The notes beneath the pieces are model-generated. The model did not search any database. It had not been told where the DNA came from and saw only the letters and a list, made by a program, of their open reading frames with translations. From Alphaproteobacteria bacterium (lineage in GTDB: Bacteria > Pseudomonadota > Alphaproteobacteria > MPNO01): 64,000 nt of DNA. The position numbers were made by a program, and so were the translations under genes. Positions 4,449-40,146 of the stretch are shown here, piece after piece; positions within the stretch are counted from its first letter, which is position 1, and the number at the start of each line of letters is the position of its first letter. The DNA is taken from the NCBI GenBank assembly GCA_965202835.1, contig CBDBCA010000002.1, positions 1,392,427 through 1,456,426 of the forward strand. The letters run 5' to 3'.

Positions 4449-5210
4449 ATGGAGAAAGGCGCGGCCGTACTGGTCACCGGGGGCTCGTCCGGGATCGGCG
4501 CGGCGTCCGCCCTGCAGCTCGCCGAGAAGGGCTGCCGCGTGGCCGTCAACTACCGCGCCAACGAATCCGGCGCGGCGGACACCGTGGCGGCCTGCGAAGG
4601 CGCCGGGGTCGAGGCGTTCGCGATCCAGGGCGACGTATCCGACGATTCCGCGTGCCGCCGCATGGCCGAGGCGGTCGAGGCGCGCTGGGGCAGGCTCGAC
4701 GGGCTGGTCAACAACGCGGGCGCCACCCGGTTCCACGACCCCTTCGACCTGGAAGGGCTGACGGCCGACGACTTTGCTTCGTCCTACGCGGTCAACGTCA
4801 CCGGCGCGTTCCAGATGGCGCGCGCGGTCGTGCCGGCGATGAAGCGGGCGGGCGGCGGCGCGATCGTCAACGTGTCGTCCTTCGCCGCCGCGATCGGCGC
4901 CGGGAGCTCGATCGCCTATACCGCGTCCAAGGGCGCGGTGAACACGCTGACGCTCTGCCTCGCCCGGGTGCTCGCGCCCGAGATCCGGGTGAACTGCGTC
5001 GCGCCGACGCTCACCGACACCCGCTGGAACCGCTCCGGGCTCGGCGACAAGCGTTACGAGAAGGTCCTGTCGGGTTTCGTGGCCTCGGCCCCGCTCAAGC
5101 GCAAGATCGTCGCCGAGGACGTGGCCGACGCCATCGTCTGGCTGGTCACCGGCGCCGAGCTGGTGACCGGCGAGATCGTTCCGATCAGCGCCGGCACCCA
5201 TCTCGGTTAG
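4449..5210 (+). CDS. SDR-family oxidoreductase
   Basis: TGGSSGIG Rossmann motif, NNAG, and the SxnYxxxK catalytic pattern (YTASKGAV). Confidence 0.85.
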   Translation: MEKGAAVLVTGGSSGIGAASALQLAEKGCRVAVNYRANESGAADTVAACEGAGVEAFAIQGDVSDDSACRRMAEAVEARWGRLDGLVNNAGATRFHDPFDLEGLTADDFASSYAVNVTGAFQMARAVVPAMKRAGGGAIVNVSSFAAAIGAGSSIAYTASKGAVNTLTLCLARVLAPEIRVNCVAPTLTDTRWNRSGLGDKRYEKVLSGFVASAPLKRKIVAEDVADAIVWLVTGAELVTGEIVPISAGTHLG

Positions 5211-5236
5211 CCCGGCCCGGGATTACCACTGTCCGG

Positions 5237-5424
5237 TTTATAGCGTGTCCGTTCTTGATTGAACCGCCTCGCCCAATTTCTGCCGTCATGGTCGGCGAAG
5301 GCCGACCATCCACGTTTTGTTTTGAATCCAGAGACTTAAAAACTCGTGGATGGTCGGCCTTCGCCGACCATGACGGTTGGGAAGCAAGGGGTAACAGCGC
5401 TTTCTATCCGAAACGGACAGACTC
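5237..5424. repeat. MITE-like 188-bp repeat, copy 1; 32-bp perfect internal inverted repeat arms (5282-5313 / 5344-5375) around a 30-bp AT-rich spacer
   Basis: Near-identical to 39959-40146. The arms CCGTCATGGTCGGCGAAGGCCGACCATCCACG and CGTGGATGGTCGGCCTTCGCCGACCATGACGG are exact reverse complements. Short terminal inverted repeats (tgtccgtt / aacggaca). It sits in a lower-GC intergenic region. Confidence 0.75.
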
Positions 5425-5697
5425 TGGCTTTCCGGGCCGGGCTCCGCGCCCATGAGCGAGACCGTCCCCGCCCCCCGGTGTCGGCTACGGATTCGGGTTC
5501 TACGCGGCGTCGCTACGCATCTGATGCCTGCAACCTTGATGCGATGATGCTTTCATGCCGTGCGGGGCGTCATGCGAAGGCCGGGCCACAAGCCGTTGAC
5601 GCGGCGTCCGCTTTCGCCGCCGCGCACCGTCCCGAACCGCGCGGGCGCCAACCCCTCGTGTCCCCTGGGGACAGAAAAAAATGCCGTTTCAGGCTAA

Positions 5698-5751
5698 TGT
5701 TTCACGTGAAACAATGGTCAACGATGCTGACCTATGTTTCACGTGAAACAT
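5698..5751. promoter_or_regulatory. two copies of the 16-bp perfect palindrome TGTTTCACGTGAAACA (5698-5713 and 5736-5751; the second extends to 18 bp, ATGTTTCACGTGAAACAT)
   Basis: Read directly from the sequence. Centres are 38 bp apart. They lie between the 3' ends of the convergent SDR and GST genes. Candidate dimeric transcription-factor operator or structured RNA. Confidence 0.5.
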
Positions 5752-5771
5752 CAGGCGGTCGAAAGGCCGGG

Positions 5772-6395
5772 CTACCCCTGGCCGAAATCGAGCCCGCGCC
5801 GCACGCCGGGCCTGGCCTCCATCTCCCCGTACCAGCGGTCGAGATTGGCGTAGCCCTGCATCAGATGCGGCGTCACCTGCTTGCAGCGGACCAGCGTGCC
5901 GAACATCGCGAAATCGGCGATGCTGACCGCCTCGCCGCCGCAATTGGCGCGCGTCGCGAGCGCTCCGTCCCAGACCCGGAGGAAATCGCTGAAGCGCTCC
6001 TCGAACATCTTCTGGGTCGGCTCGTGCGGGTTTTCCGAGCGCACGATGGCGAAGATCGTCGACAGCGTCGGTCCCATGTCGGAGAGGATGTTGACGTAGC
6101 GCTCCCGGAACAAAGGCTGGTTTTCCGCCGTGGATATCCCGAACCGGCCGGTCTTGTCGGCGAGATAGGCGAGGATCGCGCCCGATTGCGCCATGGTGAG
6201 CGAGTTCCCGTCCGGCCCGTCATGGTCGACGATCGCCGGGGTCAGACCCTGCGGGTTGATCGCCAGGAAGTCGGCCTCGCTGTGCGCGCCGGCGAAGATG
6301 TCGACGAATTTGAGGGTGTAGGCGAGGTTGCACTCCTCCAGCATGATCTTGACGCGGATGCCGTTCGAGGTGGCCGCGGCGTAGAGGTCGATCAA
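5772..6395 (-). CDS. glutathione S-transferase
   Basis: Thioredoxin-like N-terminus (MIDLYAAATSNGIRV...) with an alpha-helical GST C-terminal domain. Confidence 0.8.
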   Translation of the reverse strand: MIDLYAAATSNGIRVKIMLEECNLAYTLKFVDIFAGAHSEADFLAINPQGLTPAIVDHDGPDGNSLTMAQSGAILAYLADKTGRFGISTAENQPLFRERYVNILSDMGPTLSTIFAIVRSENPHEPTQKMFEERFSDFLRVWDGALATRANCGGEAVSIADFAMFGTLVRCKQVTPHLMQGYANLDRWYGEMEARPGVRRGLDFGQG

Positions 6396-6423
6396 TTGTT
6401 CCTCCTTCGGTGGGGCGTGGGGT

Positions 6424-7308
6424 TCAGCGGGTCACGCAGCTCTCGGTGAAGGCGCGGACCGCCGCGTTGAAGGCCTCCGGGTGCTCGCGATAGCAAAAAT
6501 GCCCGGATTCGTTGAAGATGTGCAGATAGGTGCGGCGCTCCTTCGCGGTCAGGAACTCCATCAGCGCCATGCCCTGCCAGAGCGGGGCGGTCGGGTCGTT
6601 GTAGCCCCAGAGCATCAGCGTCGGACGCTGCAGCCCGCGGTCGAGCAGCCAGCGATGGGTCTCCTCGAGATCGCGCTGGAGATCGGGCAGGAATTTCGTG
6701 GCCAGCAGCCCTTCGTCGGACATCTTGCGCACCGCCTCCTCGTATTTCGGCGTGTGCGCCGCCTCCACCGCCACGTCGAGCCAGCCCTCGGTGACGCAGG
6801 CCGCGCTGTAGGAGTAGCGCTCGAACACCCAGCGATGGCACTCGCGCGAGCGCAGAGGCAGCGGCGGATCGGCGTGGACGATCTCGTTGCGCCCGGCGCC
6901 GGGGGACAGCGTGCCCGAATCCACGATGATGCAGGAGCGGCACTGCTCGGGATGCTGGAGCGCTTGCCGGGTCACCAGGTAGCCGCCGCGCGAATGTCCG
7001 CAGAGATGGGCGGGTCCGATGCCGAGCGTCTCCATGAAGCGCGAGACGTGGTCGGTCTGGGCCTGGATGGTGTAGCCGTCGTCGGTCTTCGGGTTGTCGG
7101 TGAACCCCATGCCGAGCTTGTCGAGCGCGTAGACCCGGTAATGCTCCGACAGCGCGTCGAAGTTGAGGTCCCAGTCGTCGGCGAGGTCGGCCGCGAAGGT
7201 GCCCATGTGCCCGCCATGGACCAGCACCATCGGCTCGCCCTCGCCCTTCTCGAAATAGCGCGTCCTGATGCCGTCGACATCGACATATCTGGGATCCGAA
7301 AGCGGCAT
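6424..7308 (-). CDS. alpha/beta-fold hydrolase (meta-cleavage product hydrolase-like)
   Basis: HGGH and GHSRGG nucleophile-elbow motifs. Start taken at MPLSD, which is preceded by AGGGGGAA; the longer ORF-track start is a TTG. Confidence 0.8.
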   Translation of the reverse strand: MPLSDPRYVDVDGIRTRYFEKGEGEPMVLVHGGHMGTFAADLADDWDLNFDALSEHYRVYALDKLGMGFTDNPKTDDGYTIQAQTDHVSRFMETLGIGPAHLCGHSRGGYLVTRQALQHPEQCRSCIIVDSGTLSPGAGRNEIVHADPPLPLRSRECHRWVFERYSYSAACVTEGWLDVAVEAAHTPKYEEAVRKMSDEGLLATKFLPDLQRDLEETHRWLLDRGLQRPTLMLWGYNDPTAPLWQGMALMEFLTAKERRTYLHIFNESGHFCYREHPEAFNAAVRAFTESCVTR

Positions 7309-11788: not shown

Positions 11789-13075
11789 ATGCGCATCGAT
11801 CGGCTAACTGTCTCGAACTTCAAGAAATTCGAAGAGGAAACCTTCGAATTTCATCGCCAATTCACGCTTCTGGTGGGCGACAACGGCGCTGGCAAGACGG
11901 CCGTCCTGGATGCACTTCGTATCGGCGTGGGTGCATACCTGCTCGGGATCCCTTACGGGCAAGCACCCTCGATCAAACGGGAATATGTGCGGCGAGAGAC
12001 CAGACGAAATGGGGAGTTCTCGACTTTCGAGCCCGTCACGCCATCCGTGGTCGGATGCGAAGGACGCGTGCATCTTTCCGATCTTCGCTGGAATCGCGAA
12101 TTGGCCTCGTTCCGTGGGCGAACGAATCGAGTCGGGGCGCGGGAACTTGTACGGTGCGTCGCCAAGTACTTTCGGGAAAACGATCCGGGAATGAACTTCC
12201 CGCTGATCGTTTCGTACGGCACGGGGCGTTTGTGGATCGAGCCGCGGACCACGAAGAAAGCCCGCTCCGCAGTCCGCGAGCCTCTCGGCCGGCTGTCCCG
12301 GTTCGAAGCCTATCGCGGCTGCCTTGGCCCAGCGGTTTCGTCCGAATTGCTGCGCCGGTGGATCAAGAAAATGGCGCTGATCGCGGTTCAAGAGAAGCAG
12401 TCGCTGGCGAGTCTCGATGCGGTCTATTCGGCGGTTGTGGGCTGCGTCGAGGGTGTGGACCGGGCGCTTTACGATTTCGACCTCGACGATATTGCGCTCG
12501 ATTTCGAGGATGGAGAACGTTATCCGTTCGGCTTCCTTAGCGACGGGCAAAGAAGCATGGCGGCACTCGCTGCCGACATCGCGTTGCGATGCGTTCAACT
12601 GAACCCACATCTGGCGGGGGAGGCGCCGCACGAGACCGAGGGCGTGGCGCTGATCGATGAGTTGGACCTCCACTTGCATCCGAATTGGCAGCGCGTCGTT
12701 GTGCGCAACCTGACCTCCCTCTTTCCGAAATTGCAGTTTGTCGCCACGACGCACTCGCCGTTCATCGTTCAGTCGCTCGACGGTCAAGGGCTGGTCAATC
12801 TCAGCGATCGGGGCGTTCTGGAGGAACGAAAGGAGCCGTACAGTATCGAAGACGTGGCCGAAGAAACCATGGGCGTGGATGCGCCACAACGGAGCAAGCT
12901 GTTTCTGGAAATGGAGGCTGCGGCGGGGCGCTACTACGAACTCCTTGATCGGTTGAGCGAAGACGATCCGGCCGTAATACAAGCGAAGGCGGAGTTGAAC
13001 CGAATCGAAGCGCGCTTCTCCGACAATCCGGCATACGCCGCTTTGCTGAAGCTGCAGCGTTCTGCGGCCGAGTAG
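11789..13075 (+). CDS. ABC-type (AAA_15/AAA_21-like) ATPase, Septu PtuA-like
   Basis: Walker A GDNGAGKT, signature-like LSDGQRS, Walker B ALIDELDLHLHP, H-loop TTHSP. Lower GC than its surroundings. Immediately followed by an HNH nuclease gene. Confidence 0.7.
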   Translation: MRIDRLTVSNFKKFEEETFEFHRQFTLLVGDNGAGKTAVLDALRIGVGAYLLGIPYGQAPSIKREYVRRETRRNGEFSTFEPVTPSVVGCEGRVHLSDLRWNRELASFRGRTNRVGARELVRCVAKYFRENDPGMNFPLIVSYGTGRLWIEPRTTKKARSAVREPLGRLSRFEAYRGCLGPAVSSELLRRWIKKMALIAVQEKQSLASLDAVYSAVVGCVEGVDRALYDFDLDDIALDFEDGERYPFGFLSDGQRSMAALAADIALRCVQLNPHLAGEAPHETEGVALIDELDLHLHPNWQRVVVRNLTSLFPKLQFVATTHSPFIVQSLDGQGLVNLSDRGVLEERKEPYSIEDVAEETMGVDAPQRSKLFLEMEAAAGRYYELLDRLSEDDPAVIQAKAELNRIEARFSDNPAYAALLKLQRSAAE

Positions 13076-13092
13076 CGGAAGCCAACAGCGCG

Positions 13093-13713
13093 ATGCGATC
13101 GGTCGAACGCGGATCGTGGCCGACCGAAAGCGACGGCCACCGGAAGTCCTTCTCCCAGTACGGGCACGTGAAAGCGCCGCTAATCGAAAGAATTGGCGAG
13201 TATTGCAGCTATTGCGAGCGTCCCGGCGACCTCCATGTCGAACACGTCGTTCCCAAATCTGTGAAGGACGACCTCGAAAATGAGTGGTCGAATTTCCTGC
13301 TCGGATGCGCAAATTGCAACAGCCGCAAGTCGGACAAAAACGCTTCGAGAGATGGGTATCTTTGGTCGGATCGCGACGACACGTTCGGCGCCTTCGTATA
13401 CCGGCCGGGCGGAAGGGTGTCGGTGAACGGCGGACTTGCGCGGCCGCAGCGTGGTAAGGCGGCGGCGCTGTTCGACCTTGTCGGGCTCGGCGAAACGGGA
13501 ACCCGCACCGACAGACGCCGCCGCAAAAGGCGCCAAGCCTGGGATCAAGCAGTCAAAGTTCGCGACCTCATCAACAACGGTAATTCAAGGACTCTTGCCG
13601 TCGACTTGGCTGTGGCAATCGGATTCTTCAGCGTTTGGATGGCGGTGTTTCACGAGGACAAAGATATGCGTAACCGCTTGGTAAACGCATTTCCGGGAAC
13701 GCGAACGGGATAG
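13093..13713 (+). CDS. HNH endonuclease, Septu PtuB-like (TIGR02646-type)
   Basis: HNH motif [19 protein letters not shown]...[12 protein letters not shown]. 18 bp downstream of the ATPase gene. Confidence 0.7.
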
Positions 13714-18864: not shown

Positions 18865-20604
18865 ATGCTTACCAAGCTCACCGTCCGGAACTTCAAACGC
18901 TTCGGGGCGGTCGAGATCGAGCTCGGCAATCCGGTCGTGTTCATCGGGCCGAACAATTCGGGGAAGACCTCGGCGATGCAGGCCCTGGCGCTGTGGGATA
19001 TCGGCGTCAAGCGGTGGAACGAAAAGCGGGCCGGCAAGAGCGCGCCGGAAAAGCGTCCCGGCGTAACGGTCAACCGGAGGGACCTCTTCGCCATCCCTCA
19101 TCCGAGCGCCGTACACCTGTGGCGCGACCTGCACGTGCGGGACGTCCGGAGCGTCGAGGGGCGGCAAAGCACCGACAACGTGCGTATCGACCTGATCGTC
19201 GAAGGGGTCGACGAGGGCAAGGTCTGGACCTGCGGCCTGGAATTCGACTACGCGAACGAGGAATCGTTCTATTGCCGGCCGCTGCGGCTTGACGACGCCA
19301 AGCCGCCGAAGCGGATGCCGATCCCGAACGAAGCCGGATCGCTACGCATCGCCTTTCTGCCACCCATGTCCGGTCTGGCCGCGACCGAGACCCGGCTCGA
19401 TCAGGGCGCGGTGAACGTGAGGGTCGGCGAGGGTCGAACGGCCGAAGTCCTCCGCAACCTGTGTTTCCGCATCCTGACGGAGAATCCCGACGGGTGGGCT
19501 TCGCTGGTGACGCGTATCGAAGGCCTGTTCGGCGTGGAACTCGAAGAGCCCCGTTATGTCGAGGAACGGGGAGAAATTACCATGGGGTACCGGGAACATG
19601 GTTCGGCCCTGGACCTCTCGTCCAGCGGGCGCGGCTTGCAGCAAACGCTCCTGATCCTCGCCTACATGCACGCCAATCCGGGCGCGGTCATCCTGCTGGA
19701 CGAGCCGGACGCGCATCTCGAAATCCTCCGCCAGCGCCAGATCTACAGCCTCATCGCGGCGGTTGCGTCGGAAAGCGGCAACCAGATCGTCGCCGCGAGC
19801 CATTCCGAGGTGTTGCTCAACGAAGCCGCAGACAAGGACCTCGTGATCGCCTTCGTCGGCAAGCCGCACCGGATCGGCGACGGGCAGAGTCAAGTGCGCA
19901 AGGCGCTGGCGGAGATCGGCTTCGATCAGTACTACCAGGCCGAGCAGACCGGCTGGGTGCTCTATCTCGAAGGCTCGACCGATCTGGCGATATTGCAAGC
20001 GTTCGCGAGGAGGCTCGGCAAGGACAGGGCCGTCCGGGCGCTGGAAAGACCGTTCGTCCGCTATGTCGGGAACAGCCCGCCGACGGCCGCGCACCACTTC
20101 CACGGGCTGAGGGAAGCCATTCCCGGCCTCAAGGGGGTGGCCCTCTACGACCGTCTCGAACCAGGCGCGCCGGACGATCCGTATCTCCGACATCTGGTCT
20201 GGCACCGGCGGGAGATCGAGAACTATCTCTGTACCCGGACGACCCTGGAGACTTACGCTCGCGCGTCCGCCATGGCGGCCGAGCCGAGACCCCTGCTCGC
20301 CCCCCTTGAAGTCGACGGTCGGTTGACGGCTATGGACGAAGCGATCGGGGAGGTAAGCCGGGCCCTCGAAACCCTCGGCAAGGGATCGCCCTGGGAGAAT
20401 GACCTTAAGGTGAGCGACGAGTTCTTGACGCCGCTCTTCAAGGCCTATTTCGAGCGGATCGGCATCCCCAACCTGATGAGCAAGAAGAACTTCTACGAGC
20501 TCGCCGACTACGTTCCTGAGGCAGAGATCGACCCGGAAATCGGCGAAAAGCTGGATGCGATCGCCACGGTCGCGGAGAGCGCGAGGCCGGCGGAGGAGGA
20601 ATAG
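18865..20604 (+). CDS. stand-alone OLD-family-like ATPase with Toprim-like C-terminal domain (GajA / class-1 OLD / fused PARIS-like)
   Basis: Walker A GPNNSGKTS, signature-like LSSSGRGLQQ, Walker B VILLDEPDAHLE, H-loop ASHS. The C-terminal ~230 aa carry a Toprim-like E...D pattern (VLYLEGSTDLAILQ, VALYDRLEP). It is flanked by about 300 bp and 180 bp non-coding gaps and unrelated genes. Confidence 0.65.
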   Translation: MLTKLTVRNFKRFGAVEIELGNPVVFIGPNNSGKTSAMQALALWDIGVKRWNEKRAGKSAPEKRPGVTVNRRDLFAIPHPSAVHLWRDLHVRDVRSVEGRQSTDNVRIDLIVEGVDEGKVWTCGLEFDYANEESFYCRPLRLDDAKPPKRMPIPNEAGSLRIAFLPPMSGLAATETRLDQGAVNVRVGEGRTAEVLRNLCFRILTENPDGWASLVTRIEGLFGVELEEPRYVEERGEITMGYREHGSALDLSSSGRGLQQTLLILAYMHANPGAVILLDEPDAHLEILRQRQIYSLIAAVASESGNQIVAASHSEVLLNEAADKDLVIAFVGKPHRIGDGQSQVRKALAEIGFDQYYQAEQTGWVLYLEGSTDLAILQAFARRLGKDRAVRALERPFVRYVGNSPPTAAHHFHGLREAIPGLKGVALYDRLEPGAPDDPYLRHLVWHRREIENYLCTRTTLETYARASAMAAEPRPLLAPLEVDGRLTAMDEAIGEVSRALETLGKGSPWENDLKVSDEFLTPLFKAYFERIGIPNLMSKKNFYELADYVPEAEIDPEIGEKLDAIATVAESARPAEEE

Positions 20605-20786
20605 CGTCGGCACGCCAGGACGCCGCCATAGCGGAATGAACGATAGCGGCGACGACTTTCGGCGAGACAATGCGTCAACACGCGAAGCCAGCCGTCTGAC
20701 GGACCGAAGGAAACAGTGCTCCGCGGGCGAAGCGTTGGCCCGCCGGGCGCCAGGTCGCGCGCCCCGGGGACGCGAAACGCCCGCCG

Positions 20787-21509
<723 letters not shown>

Positions 21510-26416: not shown

Positions 26417-27244
26417 TCAGCGGTTGATCGGGTAATCGCCCTGACCGTCCCAGAAGGGATGGAGGAGGAGCCTGTGAAGATGCAGCTCGGCCGGGTCGCG
26501 GAAGCTGTCCAGGCCGATGGTCATCGCCTCGTGGCCCTTCGCGGGCTGGTCCCGGTAGGTGCCGAAAAGGCGGTCCCACCAGGGAAAGTTGAAACCGAAA
26601 TTGCTGTTGGTCTCGGCCGTGATGTCGGAATGGTGGACTCGGTGCATGTCGGGCGTGACGACGATCAGGCGCAGCACCCGGTCGAGTCCCAGGGGCAGGC
26701 GAAGATTGCCGTGGTTGAACATCGAGGTGCCGTTCAGCAGCACCTCGAAGATCACCATGGCCAGCGCCGCCGGGCCGATCACGATCACCGCCGCGAACTT
26801 CAGCAGCACCGAGAGGATGATCTCGAACGGGTGGAAGCGGGAGCCGGTGGTGACGTCGAAATCGAGATCAGCGTGATGCATGCGATGAAGGCGCCACAGC
26901 GCCGGCACGGCGTGGAACATGACGTGCTGGAGGTAGATCACGAGATCGAGCACGAGAACCGCGATCGCGACCTCCAGCCAGAACGGCAGCGCGACCAGGT
27001 TGAGCACCCCCCAGCCGCGCTCTTCCGCGATCACGGCGAGCGCGACCGGCGCGACGGGGACGAGCAGCCGCACCGCCACGGTGTTGAGGGCGACGATGCC
27101 GATATTGGCGTACCAGCGCAGCCAGCGGGGCTGGCTCGGCGCCCGCCTCGGCGCGGCCAGTTCCCACAGCGCCACAACGGCGAAAATGCCGACGAAGAAG
27201 CCGAGCCTGATCGCGGGCTCGCTCTCGGCGATGAACTCGGGCAT
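26417..27244 (-). CDS. sterol desaturase / fatty-acid hydroxylase superfamily membrane protein
   Basis: His boxes HxxHH (HRMHHAD, HRVHHSD) in a polytopic membrane protein. Confidence 0.8.
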   Translation of the reverse strand: MPEFIAESEPAIRLGFFVGIFAVVALWELAAPRRAPSQPRWLRWYANIGIVALNTVAVRLLVPVAPVALAVIAEERGWGVLNLVALPFWLEVAIAVLVLDLVIYLQHVMFHAVPALWRLHRMHHADLDFDVTTGSRFHPFEIILSVLLKFAAVIVIGPAALAMVIFEVLLNGTSMFNHGNLRLPLGLDRVLRLIVVTPDMHRVHHSDITAETNSNFGFNFPWWDRLFGTYRDQPAKGHEAMTIGLDSFRDPAELHLHRLLLHPFWDGQGDYPINR

Positions 27245-27247
27245 CGG

Positions 27248-27595
27248 TCACACCGGAACGATATCGTCGAGCGCCACCCGGAGCGCGTCGGCGAGCTTGC
27301 GAAGGGTCTTCACGGAACCCGCGTTGCGTCCGGCTTCGATCTCCACGATCTGCACCCGGTTGACGCCGGAGACGCGTGCGAGCCGGGATTGGGAAAAGCC
27401 GCGGTATTCCCGCCAGACCCTGAGCGCCGATTCCCCGTCAATGAGGCGGTCGGCGACGCTGGAAGGAACGAGCTCTTCCTCCCCGGCGGCGATCCGCGCC
27501 TCAATGTCCAGCGCCGCCCGGAAGTCCTCGAAATCTTCTTCCATGGCGCGCAGACGGTCGTATTCCGCTCTCGGGATCGTTACGGTTTCGGTCAT
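27248..27595 (-). CDS. higA: HTH XRE-family antitoxin (HigA-like)
   Basis: C-terminal HTH FSQSRLARVSGVNRVQIVEIEAG. Located 5 bp downstream of the RelE/ParE-family toxin gene (toxin-first order). Confidence 0.65.
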   Translation of the reverse strand: MTETVTIPRAEYDRLRAMEEDFEDFRAALDIEARIAAGEEELVPSSVADRLIDGESALRVWREYRGFSQSRLARVSGVNRVQIVEIEAGRNAGSVKTLRKLADALRVALDDIVPV

Positions 27596-27600
27596 CGAAG

Positions 27601-27855
27601 TTACTCCCGATAGGCGCTGCCGCGGCTGGTTACGTGGAGGACGTGGAGCGTGCTCATCTCGCGCATCACGATCCGCCAGTCTCCCACCCTGAGGCGTACC
27701 AGGCCGTCCTCACCCTTCATAGCGACGACGTTGTTCGCCTGCGACGCAGGGTCGTCCGCGTAGGCCCTGATTTTCTCCCGGATACGGCTTGCCAGATTGC
27801 GCGGCATCCGGGACAGAGCCTTCACGGCGGTGCGGCTATACGCGATATCTCTCAC
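27601..27855 (-). CDS. higB: RelE/ParE-family type II toxin (HigB-like)
   Basis: Conserved core ...LASRIREKIRAYADDPASQANNVVAMKGEDGLVRLRVGDWRIVMREM..LHVLHVTSRGSAY. Start placed at an internal GTG (27855) so that the promoter/operator lies upstream. The ORF-track ATG at 27921 is the alternative. Confidence 0.6.
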   Translation of the reverse strand: MRDIAYSRTAVKALSRMPRNLASRIREKIRAYADDPASQANNVVAMKGEDGLVRLRVGDWRIVMREMSTLHVLHVTSRGSAYRE

Positions 27856-39958: not shown

Positions 39959-40146
39959 TCTATAGCGTGTCCGTTCTTGATTGAACCGCCTCGTCCATTT
40001 TCTTCCGTCATGGTCGGCGAAGGCCGACCATCCACGTTTTGTTTTTGATTCCAGAGACTTAAAAACTCGTGGATGGTCGGCCTTCGCCGACCATGACGGT
40101 TAGGAAGCAAGGGTAACAGCGCTTCCATCTGAGACGGACAGGCTCT
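39959..40146. repeat. MITE-like 188-bp repeat, copy 2
   Basis: Near-identical to 5237-5424, including the 32-bp inverted-repeat arms. Confidence 0.75.

Follow-up and report, generated by a model that had tools for sequence, protein, structure and literature searches.

Twin palindromes with the sequence of chromosomal parS, probably ParB loading sites, within a conserved cassette of about 97 bp at the 3′ end of an alphaproteobacterial gene

ParABS segregation systems are nearly universal in Alphaproteobacteria. Most parS sites are found in the part of a chromosome near ori. Chromosomal parS, the site at which ParB is loaded, has the consensus TGTTNCACGTGAAACA; it is tabulated as TGTTTCACGTGAAACA for Hyphomonas neptunium and as the near-identical t/cGTTt/cCACGTGAAAca for Caulobacter (PMC7022226). 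In H. neptunium, two parS sites lie upstream of parAB. The ParB of this organism shifts an oligonucleotide of exactly TGTTTCACGTGAAACA in EMSA, and a 2-nt mutation abolishes the binding (PMC6650430). In Caulobacter crescentus, the sites form a cluster about 8 kb from ori, which includes the adjacent strong sites 3 and 4. Here, a permissive zone of about 500 kb accepts extra parS sites, while an ectopic strong parS outside this zone lowers fitness (PMC5815017). A different arrangement is known from Corynebacterium glutamicum, where ten identical parS sites lie within 35 kb, 73 kb from oriC, and nine of them are intergenic; as this cluster is away from parAB, parS need not adjoin parAB (PMC7083940).

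Two further groups of described elements resemble the locus presented here in other respects. Repeats of the REP/BIME and MITE types, such as the REP elements of E. coli and the Correia elements of Neisseria, are short and palindrome-rich and are found in many intergenic contexts. They lie preferentially at gene 3′ ends or in convergent gaps, their presence varies between relatives and they may have terminator or mRNA-stabilising side effects. Composite centromeres, on the other hand, are known from plasmids; for instance, the parS of P1 comprises an IHF site and boxes A and B, and the sopC of F is made of repeats. Both adjoin their own par operon.

The pair of palindromes described here was found in the window, i.e., the whole stretch of 64 kb of DNA that was analysed. 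Its 16-bp sequence is identical to the parS of Hyphomonas, its two copies form a closely spaced pair, as parS sites in Hyphomonas and Caulobacter occur in such pairs or in clusters, and its role is presumed to be the same as in these organisms, namely ParB nucleation and clamp loading. Unlike the sites of Hyphomonas and Caulobacter, however, the pair is not beside parAB or mnmG, and it is part of a conserved cassette with extra palindromes, of which no description was found for those two organisms. It also resembles the arrangement in C. glutamicum, in which multiple identical consensus sites are spread over tens of kb, away from parAB and intergenic among ordinary metabolic genes, although no shared flanking cassette or orientation rule is reported for that species, which belongs to a different phylum (PMC7083940). 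The cassette shares with REP and MITE-type repeats the features listed above, but it has neither terminal inverted repeats nor target-site duplications, its copy number appears to be low, and its most conserved part is the putative site of a segregation protein. With the centromeres of P1 and F it has in common that it is a multi-part DNA module and not a single palindrome, while the sequences and the ParB subfamilies are unrelated.

Sequence and identity of the paired palindromes

The elements of the locus are the following, in window coordinates.

4449..5210, plus strand: SDR gene (Pfam adh_short), which converges on the cassette from the hairpin-1 side at a distance of 449 nt
5660..5756, minus strand (relative to the incoming GST gene): whole cassette with the twin putative parS sites, about 97 bp, matched by an nhmmer profile at 5660-5755
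5660..5672, unstranded: hairpin or palindrome 1, GTCCCCTGGGGAC, the left edge of the cassette, present once in the window
5673..5697, minus strand: linker, with an A-run at 5675-5681 (minus-strand T7), the weak hairpin 2 and then TAA
5698..5713, unstranded: putative parS site 1, TGTTTCACGTGAAACA, a perfect 16-bp palindrome and an exact match to the published chromosomal parS consensus
5714..5734, unstranded: 21-nt spacer between the two sites, ATGGTCAACGATGCTGACCTA, conserved across cassettes
5735..5750, unstranded: putative parS site 2, TGTTTCACGTGAAACA, an exact match inside an 18-mer palindrome, ATGTTTCACGTGAAACAT (5734-5751)
5772..6395, minus strand: GST-family gene (Pfam GST_N/GST_C), transcribed toward the cassette

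The first-pass annotation of this DNA had reported twin perfect palindromes of 16 bp, the second extending to an 18-mer, between convergent SDR and GST genes. Both palindromes were recovered at the positions given in the list, and the convergence of the two genes agrees with Pfam and with the coordinates. Two of the accompanying figures need correction, as the distance between the centres is 37 bp instead of 38 bp and the G+C content of the window is 67.3%, compared with about 70% claimed for the genome. An A precedes both copies of TGTTTCACGTGAAACA, which gives a 17-nt direct repeat (5697-5713 and 5734-5750). Together with the spacer, the two sites form an imperfect palindrome of 61 bp, with arms of 27 nt (5694-5720 and 5728-5754) that are 89% complementary, and a smaller imperfect palindrome, GGTCAAC-N3-GCTGACC, lies within the spacer at 5716-5732. 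A chance origin had been called unlikely, and this was borne out: only 0.06 matches to TGTTTCACGTGAAACA are expected, and two or more were found in none of 100 dinucleotide-preserving shuffles of the window. With up to three mismatches allowed, neither strand of the 64 kb contains a further match to TGTTTCACGTGAAACA.

Open reading frames called mechanically run across the two sites, one on the plus strand (5346-6449) and one on the minus strand (5689-5943), and include the peptide MFHVK(Q/H). The A followed by parS reads ATG TTT CAC GTG AAA CA on both strands, and parS sites preceded by A can seed spurious calls of short "hypothetical proteins".

Comparison of the 16-bp palindrome with the consensus TGTTNCACGTGAAACA gave two perfect matches, and the 14 papers that were found to contain the exact 16-mer TGTTTCACGTGAAACA are all on ParB and parS. 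Both palindromes are thus very probably chromosomal parS sites, that is, ParB loading sites of a ParABS segregation system, to which we give a probability of roughly 0.9. This reading is based on identity to an experimentally bound consensus, on the selective conservation of the 16-mers (see below) and on genomic associations. A protein-binding element had been one of the options considered in the first-pass annotation and is the most likely one, as TGTTTCACGTGAAACA is the consensus of a ParB site, but parS had not been recognised at that stage. On this reading, the pair is one more example of a very well-known element and, as such, an ordinary finding.

One set of genomic associations comes from a survey of perfect parS pairs, in which one genome per species was searched for two copies 6-36 nt apart. 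Such pairs occur in at least 120 species, which belong to Actinomycetota, Bacillota, Bacteroidota, Alphaproteobacteria and other groups. By a crude signature search, ParB or MnmG motifs were present in 59 of 120 loci of 8 kb among the matches listed. For instance, in the alphaproteobacterial loci L001, L035, L036 and L077 the parS pair is within about 120 bp of mnmG; parB is present in L020, also alphaproteobacterial, and motifs of ParB or MnmG in L089 and L108. The spacing of the twin sites varies from 22 to 55 bp among the 120 loci listed, with lineage-specific modes at 39 and 46, which rules out a universal rule of 37 bp.

It had also been proposed that the palindromes are operators, at which a dimeric transcription factor would control an unannotated small gene or sRNA in 5430-5700. 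Paired palindromes are indeed a typical operator architecture, and the intergenic gap between the SDR and GST genes is long (561 nt). Nevertheless, the sites are located between two gene 3′ ends, and a pattern scan of 5150-5900 detected no sigma-70-like promoter. A search of 5150-5850 against Rfam returned only sub-threshold matches of the miRNA type, which fall on the hairpin of a MITE. This MITE (5209-5443) and 216 nt of unique sequence (5444-5659) make up the part of the gap between the SDR gene and the cassette. The unique part has no counterpart in related loci, and even the closest relative has a completely different spacer, so that a conserved small gene or sRNA is not apparent there. 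The sequence being, moreover, fully explained as parS, hardly any likelihood is left for an operator.

The adjacent MITE-like element is 235 bp long and starts inside the stop codon of the SDR gene, at the A of TAG (5209). It has perfect terminal inverted repeats of 12 nt (AGCCCGGCCCGG / CCGGGCCGGGCT) and an inner hairpin of 39 nt. The window has another copy at 39961-40146, with 94% identity over 188 bp, and the element is absent from all other loci examined. The suggestion that the palindromes and this element form a single repeat family did not hold, since the second MITE copy is without parS and the other cassette loci are without the MITE. The MITE is thus unrelated to the parS cassette.

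The wider window has no partition genes of its own. About 50 of its ORFs, chosen by third-position G+C, were scanned with Pfam and turned out to be metabolic and transport genes together with two AAA_15/AAA_21 ATPases; ParA, ParB, DnaA, MnmG and RsmG were absent among them. In addition, a six-frame scan of the 64 kb found no ParB or MnmG signature motifs, and there is no parAB or mnmG for at least 5.7 kb on one side of the pair and 58 kb on the other. The GC skew is flat across the window, with no switch and no origin signature, and only distant matches, to hutU, were obtained in the search for a plasmid or chromid origin. In relatives with the cassette described below, one copy is 359 nt upstream of dnaA (L007). 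Another (L123) is separated from gyrA by about 5 kb and has a third parS at a distance of 2.6 kb, so that three parS sites are found within 2.7 kb. We infer that the window belongs to an origin-proximal zone, and the cognate ParB is presumably encoded in the source genome.

A conserved cassette around the pair

Of the 120 loci listed in the survey, two match the window beyond the palindromes themselves, namely L007, from an alphaproteobacterial MAG chromosome, and L010, from a Defluviicoccus MAG. In all three, GTCCCCnGGGGAC is located about 25 nt before the first parS and the spacer has the form GGTCAnC..GyTGACC. A scan of metagenomes with the pattern GTCCCCNGGGGAC-N15-40-parS, in which the second parS was left unconstrained, gave 16 loci, and 10 of these have the complete twin arrangement. 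In total, 12 further full cassettes are known (13 with the window), which are 78-90% identical to 5660-5756, cannot be aligned in their flanks on either side and have non-syntenic neighbours. They come from Defluviicoccus and other alphaproteobacterial MAGs and from metagenomes. A profile search also detected partial copies in L121, L122, L129, L130, L142 and L145, while in the window the nhmmer profile of the cassette finds a single copy (E = 1e-27). The first-pass annotation had named, as an outcome that would speak against its operator reading, that the palindromes are part of a longer repeat present in other intergenic regions, and this turned out to be the case.

In cassette alignments, the parts follow each other in a fixed order: hairpin 1 (GTCCCCnGGGGAC); a linker with the consensus rCGAAAATAGT-GTCyCATATCGrGAC-AA, in which GTCyC-ATATC-GrGAC is hairpin 2; parS; a spacer with the consensus wwGGTCAACAATGCTGACCTA; the second parS; and TyAGG. 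In the window, hairpin 2 (GCC GTTTCA GGC, 5683-5694) has just 3 bp. Homology between cassettes begins exactly at hairpin 1. Outside the window, in about 1 Mb of other loci, this hairpin is found only beside parS, in L007 and L010 among the 120 loci listed and in L142 among the loci syntenic with the window. Contig Ga0209754_1000141 (115 kb) carries two cassettes at a distance of about 21.8 kb, which, like the sites of L123, recalls known parS clusters, and seven copies are on separate short contigs of the metagenome assembly LXNJ01, which may represent one genome or several. In L007, the spacer (2760-2780), GGTCAGCATTGTTGACC, is identical to the family consensus GGTCAACAATGCTGACC in reverse complement, which implies that the near-palindromic twin-parS block would have been flipped there relative to the hairpins.

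With its sharp edges, its unrelated flanks and its 13 full and about six partial copies, the discrete unit is also what would be expected of a primarily selfish or neutral palindromic repeat of the MITE or REP kind, which spreads to gene 3′ ends and carries parS incidentally. A position at gene ends or between convergent genes is typical of such elements, and decayed cassette copies with only one parS exist. In addition, cassette presence differs among close relatives, as L126 and L142 have it after a 240-aa SDR and the window after the GST gene, unlike L141-L145. In a neutral repeat, however, the 16-mers would not be expected to stay near-invariant while the remaining cassette diverges. In the second parS of the 10 metagenomic cassettes there is 1 mismatch in 160 positions, compared with 72 in 470 in the linker and spacer (Fisher p = 5e-9), which points to selection for ParB binding. 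Because the 16-mers are conserved far beyond the remaining cassette, the ParB-binding sequence appears to be the part that matters most, and this selective conservation argues against an incidental or purely RNA-level role.

The structure of the cassette does not favour a mobile repeat either. Its ends (GTCCCC... / ...GAAACATyAGG) are not inverted copies of each other, which means that it lacks terminal inverted repeats, and a target-site duplication was seen neither in the comparison of the filled site (window) with the empty one (L141) nor in that of L126 with the window. Signs of classical MITE mechanics were not found. The cassette is present only once in the 64 kb, and no copy was found on viral contigs or plasmids. 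Furthermore, the fitness cost of an ectopic strong parS in Caulobacter makes a neutral spread unlikely (PMC5815017). Taken together, it is very unlikely that the cassette is in the main a selfish or neutral repeat, and parS sites under selection are the preferred reading.

A resemblance to the attC sites of integrons was also considered, prompted by the fixed orientation after a stop codon and by the GGCTAA...TTAGGC flanks of the window and L123. It was ruled out, as most flanks do not fit RYYYAAC/GTTRRRY, the neighbours are syntenic core genes and the cassette is present or absent irrespective of the gene.

Orientation at gene ends and turnover between relatives

With the cassette written from hairpin 1 to parS, the first gene called with confidence beyond the parS side is on the opposite strand, and so reads toward the cassette, in every one of the 15 loci where such a call could be made (about 13 of them independent). 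The loci without a confident adjacent gene include no counter-example. The stop codon of this gene is usually 0-23 nt from parS. In the window, the GST stop TAG (5772-5774) is 21 nt from parS site 2, and the corresponding distances are 17 nt in L007, 0 in L124, 11 in L125, 7 in L126, 5 in L128, 7 in L130, 21 in L135 and 23 in L136. Two variant loci obey the same rule: in L142 parS is 18 nt past a TAG stop, and in L145 it overlaps a TAA stop. On the hairpin-1 side, genes are farther away (48 nt to 2 kb) and face either direction. Along the strand of the incoming gene, the stop codon is followed by parS, the spacer, the second parS, the small hairpin, a T-rich tract (T7 in the window, TATTTTCG in the consensus) and GTCCCCnGGGGAC. 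It is possible that the distal part of the cassette acts as a terminator or insulator.

TAG is the stop codon of seven of the 10 genes that end beside cassettes (the window gene, L007, L126, L128, L130, L135 and L136), compared with 15 of 50 window genes (binomial P ~0.01). The 240-aa SDR orthologues differ in a similar manner, with TGA in the window, where no cassette follows this gene, and TAG in L126 and L142, where a cassette is present; the homology break between the orthologues falls inside the stop codon.

The rule that the gene always enters on the parS side might also be understood as the mark of an RNA-level element. In this case, the 61-nt near-perfect hairpin, together with the small hairpin and a U-tract, would terminate or stabilise the GST mRNA, and ParB would be irrelevant. 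Folding of the minus-strand RNA gives -68.9 kcal/mol (z = -8.4), and consensus copies on the gene strand read GUCCC-loop-GGGAC followed by UAUUUUCG, with a U7 run in the window. Nevertheless, the fold energy is of little weight, since any pair of palindromes folds in this way. Compensatory changes, moreover, would be tolerated in an RNA hairpin, whereas the 16-mers stay fixed to the ParB consensus. A terminator pattern scan flags only the spacer stem, with no more matches than in shuffled sequence, and the 3 bp of hairpin 2 in the window compare poorly with the consensus copies, in which a 5-bp hairpin is followed by TATTTTCG. Covariation in the accessory stems is weak, as hairpin 2 is paired in 69% of cells and the observed score was reached in 15 of 500 shuffles, and the reading of these stems as structured RNA was discarded for this reason. 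We consider it highly improbable that the element works on the mRNA in place of ParB. A terminator-like side role of the cassette, added to its putative function as parS, is possible.

The positions of the cassette are not stable between close relatives. GST orthologues of 78-92% identity are found on Mb-scale contigs, in neighbourhoods syntenic with the window (HpnN, CMD, SDR, then GST, hydrolase, GST, ADH, and on to HutU). In all of these syntenic relatives (L141-L145), parS is absent from the SDR/GST junction, which indicates that this pair is not individually indispensable. At the junction, L141 (91% identity) has a different spacer of 194 nt, L142-L144 have the two genes 2 nt apart and L145 has a different neighbour. 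Between the filled site of the window and the empty one of L141, homology is interrupted from about 12 nt past the stop of the GST gene to that of the SDR gene, the spacer being wholly remodelled.

The distribution is the opposite one at a second place. L126 matches 19699-20996 of the window with 88-94% identity in DNA and 92-98% in protein. Its 240-aa SDR gene is followed by a full cassette, while the orthologue in the window (20787-21509) has no parS there; L142 has a variant with a single parS at the same SDR end. From such presence and absence between relatives, together with the decayed copies, it appears that cassette positions change on the timescale of species divergence.

Two further observations were made at this second place. 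In L142, the single parS and a hairpin-2-like sequence are followed by three tandem repeats of 40 bp (505-610), each with GTCCCCnGGGGAC, so that amplification of the accessory hairpin can occur without that of parS. In the window, just past the SDR stop (20787), the minus strand has at 20755-20786 the sequence TTTCGC-GTCCCCGGGGCGC, which resembles the T-tract and the end of hairpin 1 and occupies the site where L126 and L142 carry parS. From this resemblance, 20755-20786 may be the remnant of a cassette deletion; the cassette profile search gave no match at these positions.

Gene content in the same neighbourhoods is variable as well. The two AAA_15/AAA_21 (OLD/AbiEii-like) ATPase genes of the window, at 11789-13713 and 18865-20604, the first followed by an HNH nuclease, lie where the GC content is low (0.61 at 12-14 kb). 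The slot beside hutU is filled differently in the syntenic relatives: L142 has HEPN_AbiV and a MazE-like gene, L143 has GmrSD, L145 has an AAA_15 fragment along with other genes, and L141 lacks anything of the kind. The slot has the appearance of a hotspot with variable defence genes. Similarly, L137 (19546-20219) and L138 (12289-12962) carry a ParE-toxin/HTH antitoxin pair between DUF924 and fatty-acid-hydroxylase genes, where the window has only a gap of about 545 nt (~27244-27789).

Proposed working and significance of the cassette

Established ParABS biology (PMC7022226, PMC6650430, PMC7053999 and PMC8367383) suggests how the pair would work. A ParB dimer would recognise each 16-bp palindrome via its helix-turn-helix domain. 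Binding to parS would lead to a CTP-dependent closure of ParB into a clamp, which would slide onto the flanking DNA, and repeated loading would produce a partition complex of several kb. ParA-ATP would then pull this complex, by which the origin region would be segregated, and the complex would also load SMC. In such a scheme, two adjacent perfect parS sites would be a stronger loading point. By analogy with these systems, ParB binding at the two sites and the subsequent ParABS steps are expected in this organism as well.

The role of the accessory palindromes is a matter of several options, as they could be a terminator or insulator, the site of a second protein or a relic of cassette spread. 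A more far-reaching idea, which we put forward tentatively and consider doubtful at present, is that in the clade that contains Defluviicoccus the functional centromere is built from a portable, oriented parS cassette of about 97 bp, re-seeded at gene 3′ ends in the origin-proximal zone. Two parS sites, two accessory palindromes and the T-tract would be duplicated, lost and re-seeded, and close relatives would come to differ in the number and position of their centromere sites. The accessory part might end transcription that comes in from the gene, block the traffic of ParB and RNAP on one side or bind a second factor. Any such function, if real, would explain why the gene always runs into the parS side. 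A literature search of incomplete coverage returned no described parS-bearing repeat, and the packaging of parS in a conserved, oriented cassette right behind stop codons in an alphaproteobacterial clade, with positions that turn over between close relatives, may be new.

If the palindromes are parS, the pair marks a chromosome partition site and, by extension, places the window near the origin, which is useful for annotation and for the orientation of the replicon. Should the idea of a portable cassette also be true, parS in the form of an oriented cassette after stop codons would be a natural system in which to follow the gain and loss of centromere sites, as well as ParB loading against transcription that runs into the site. 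In that event, the signature of GTCCCCnGGGGAC, about 25 nt and parS would find centromere regions in MAGs of this group.
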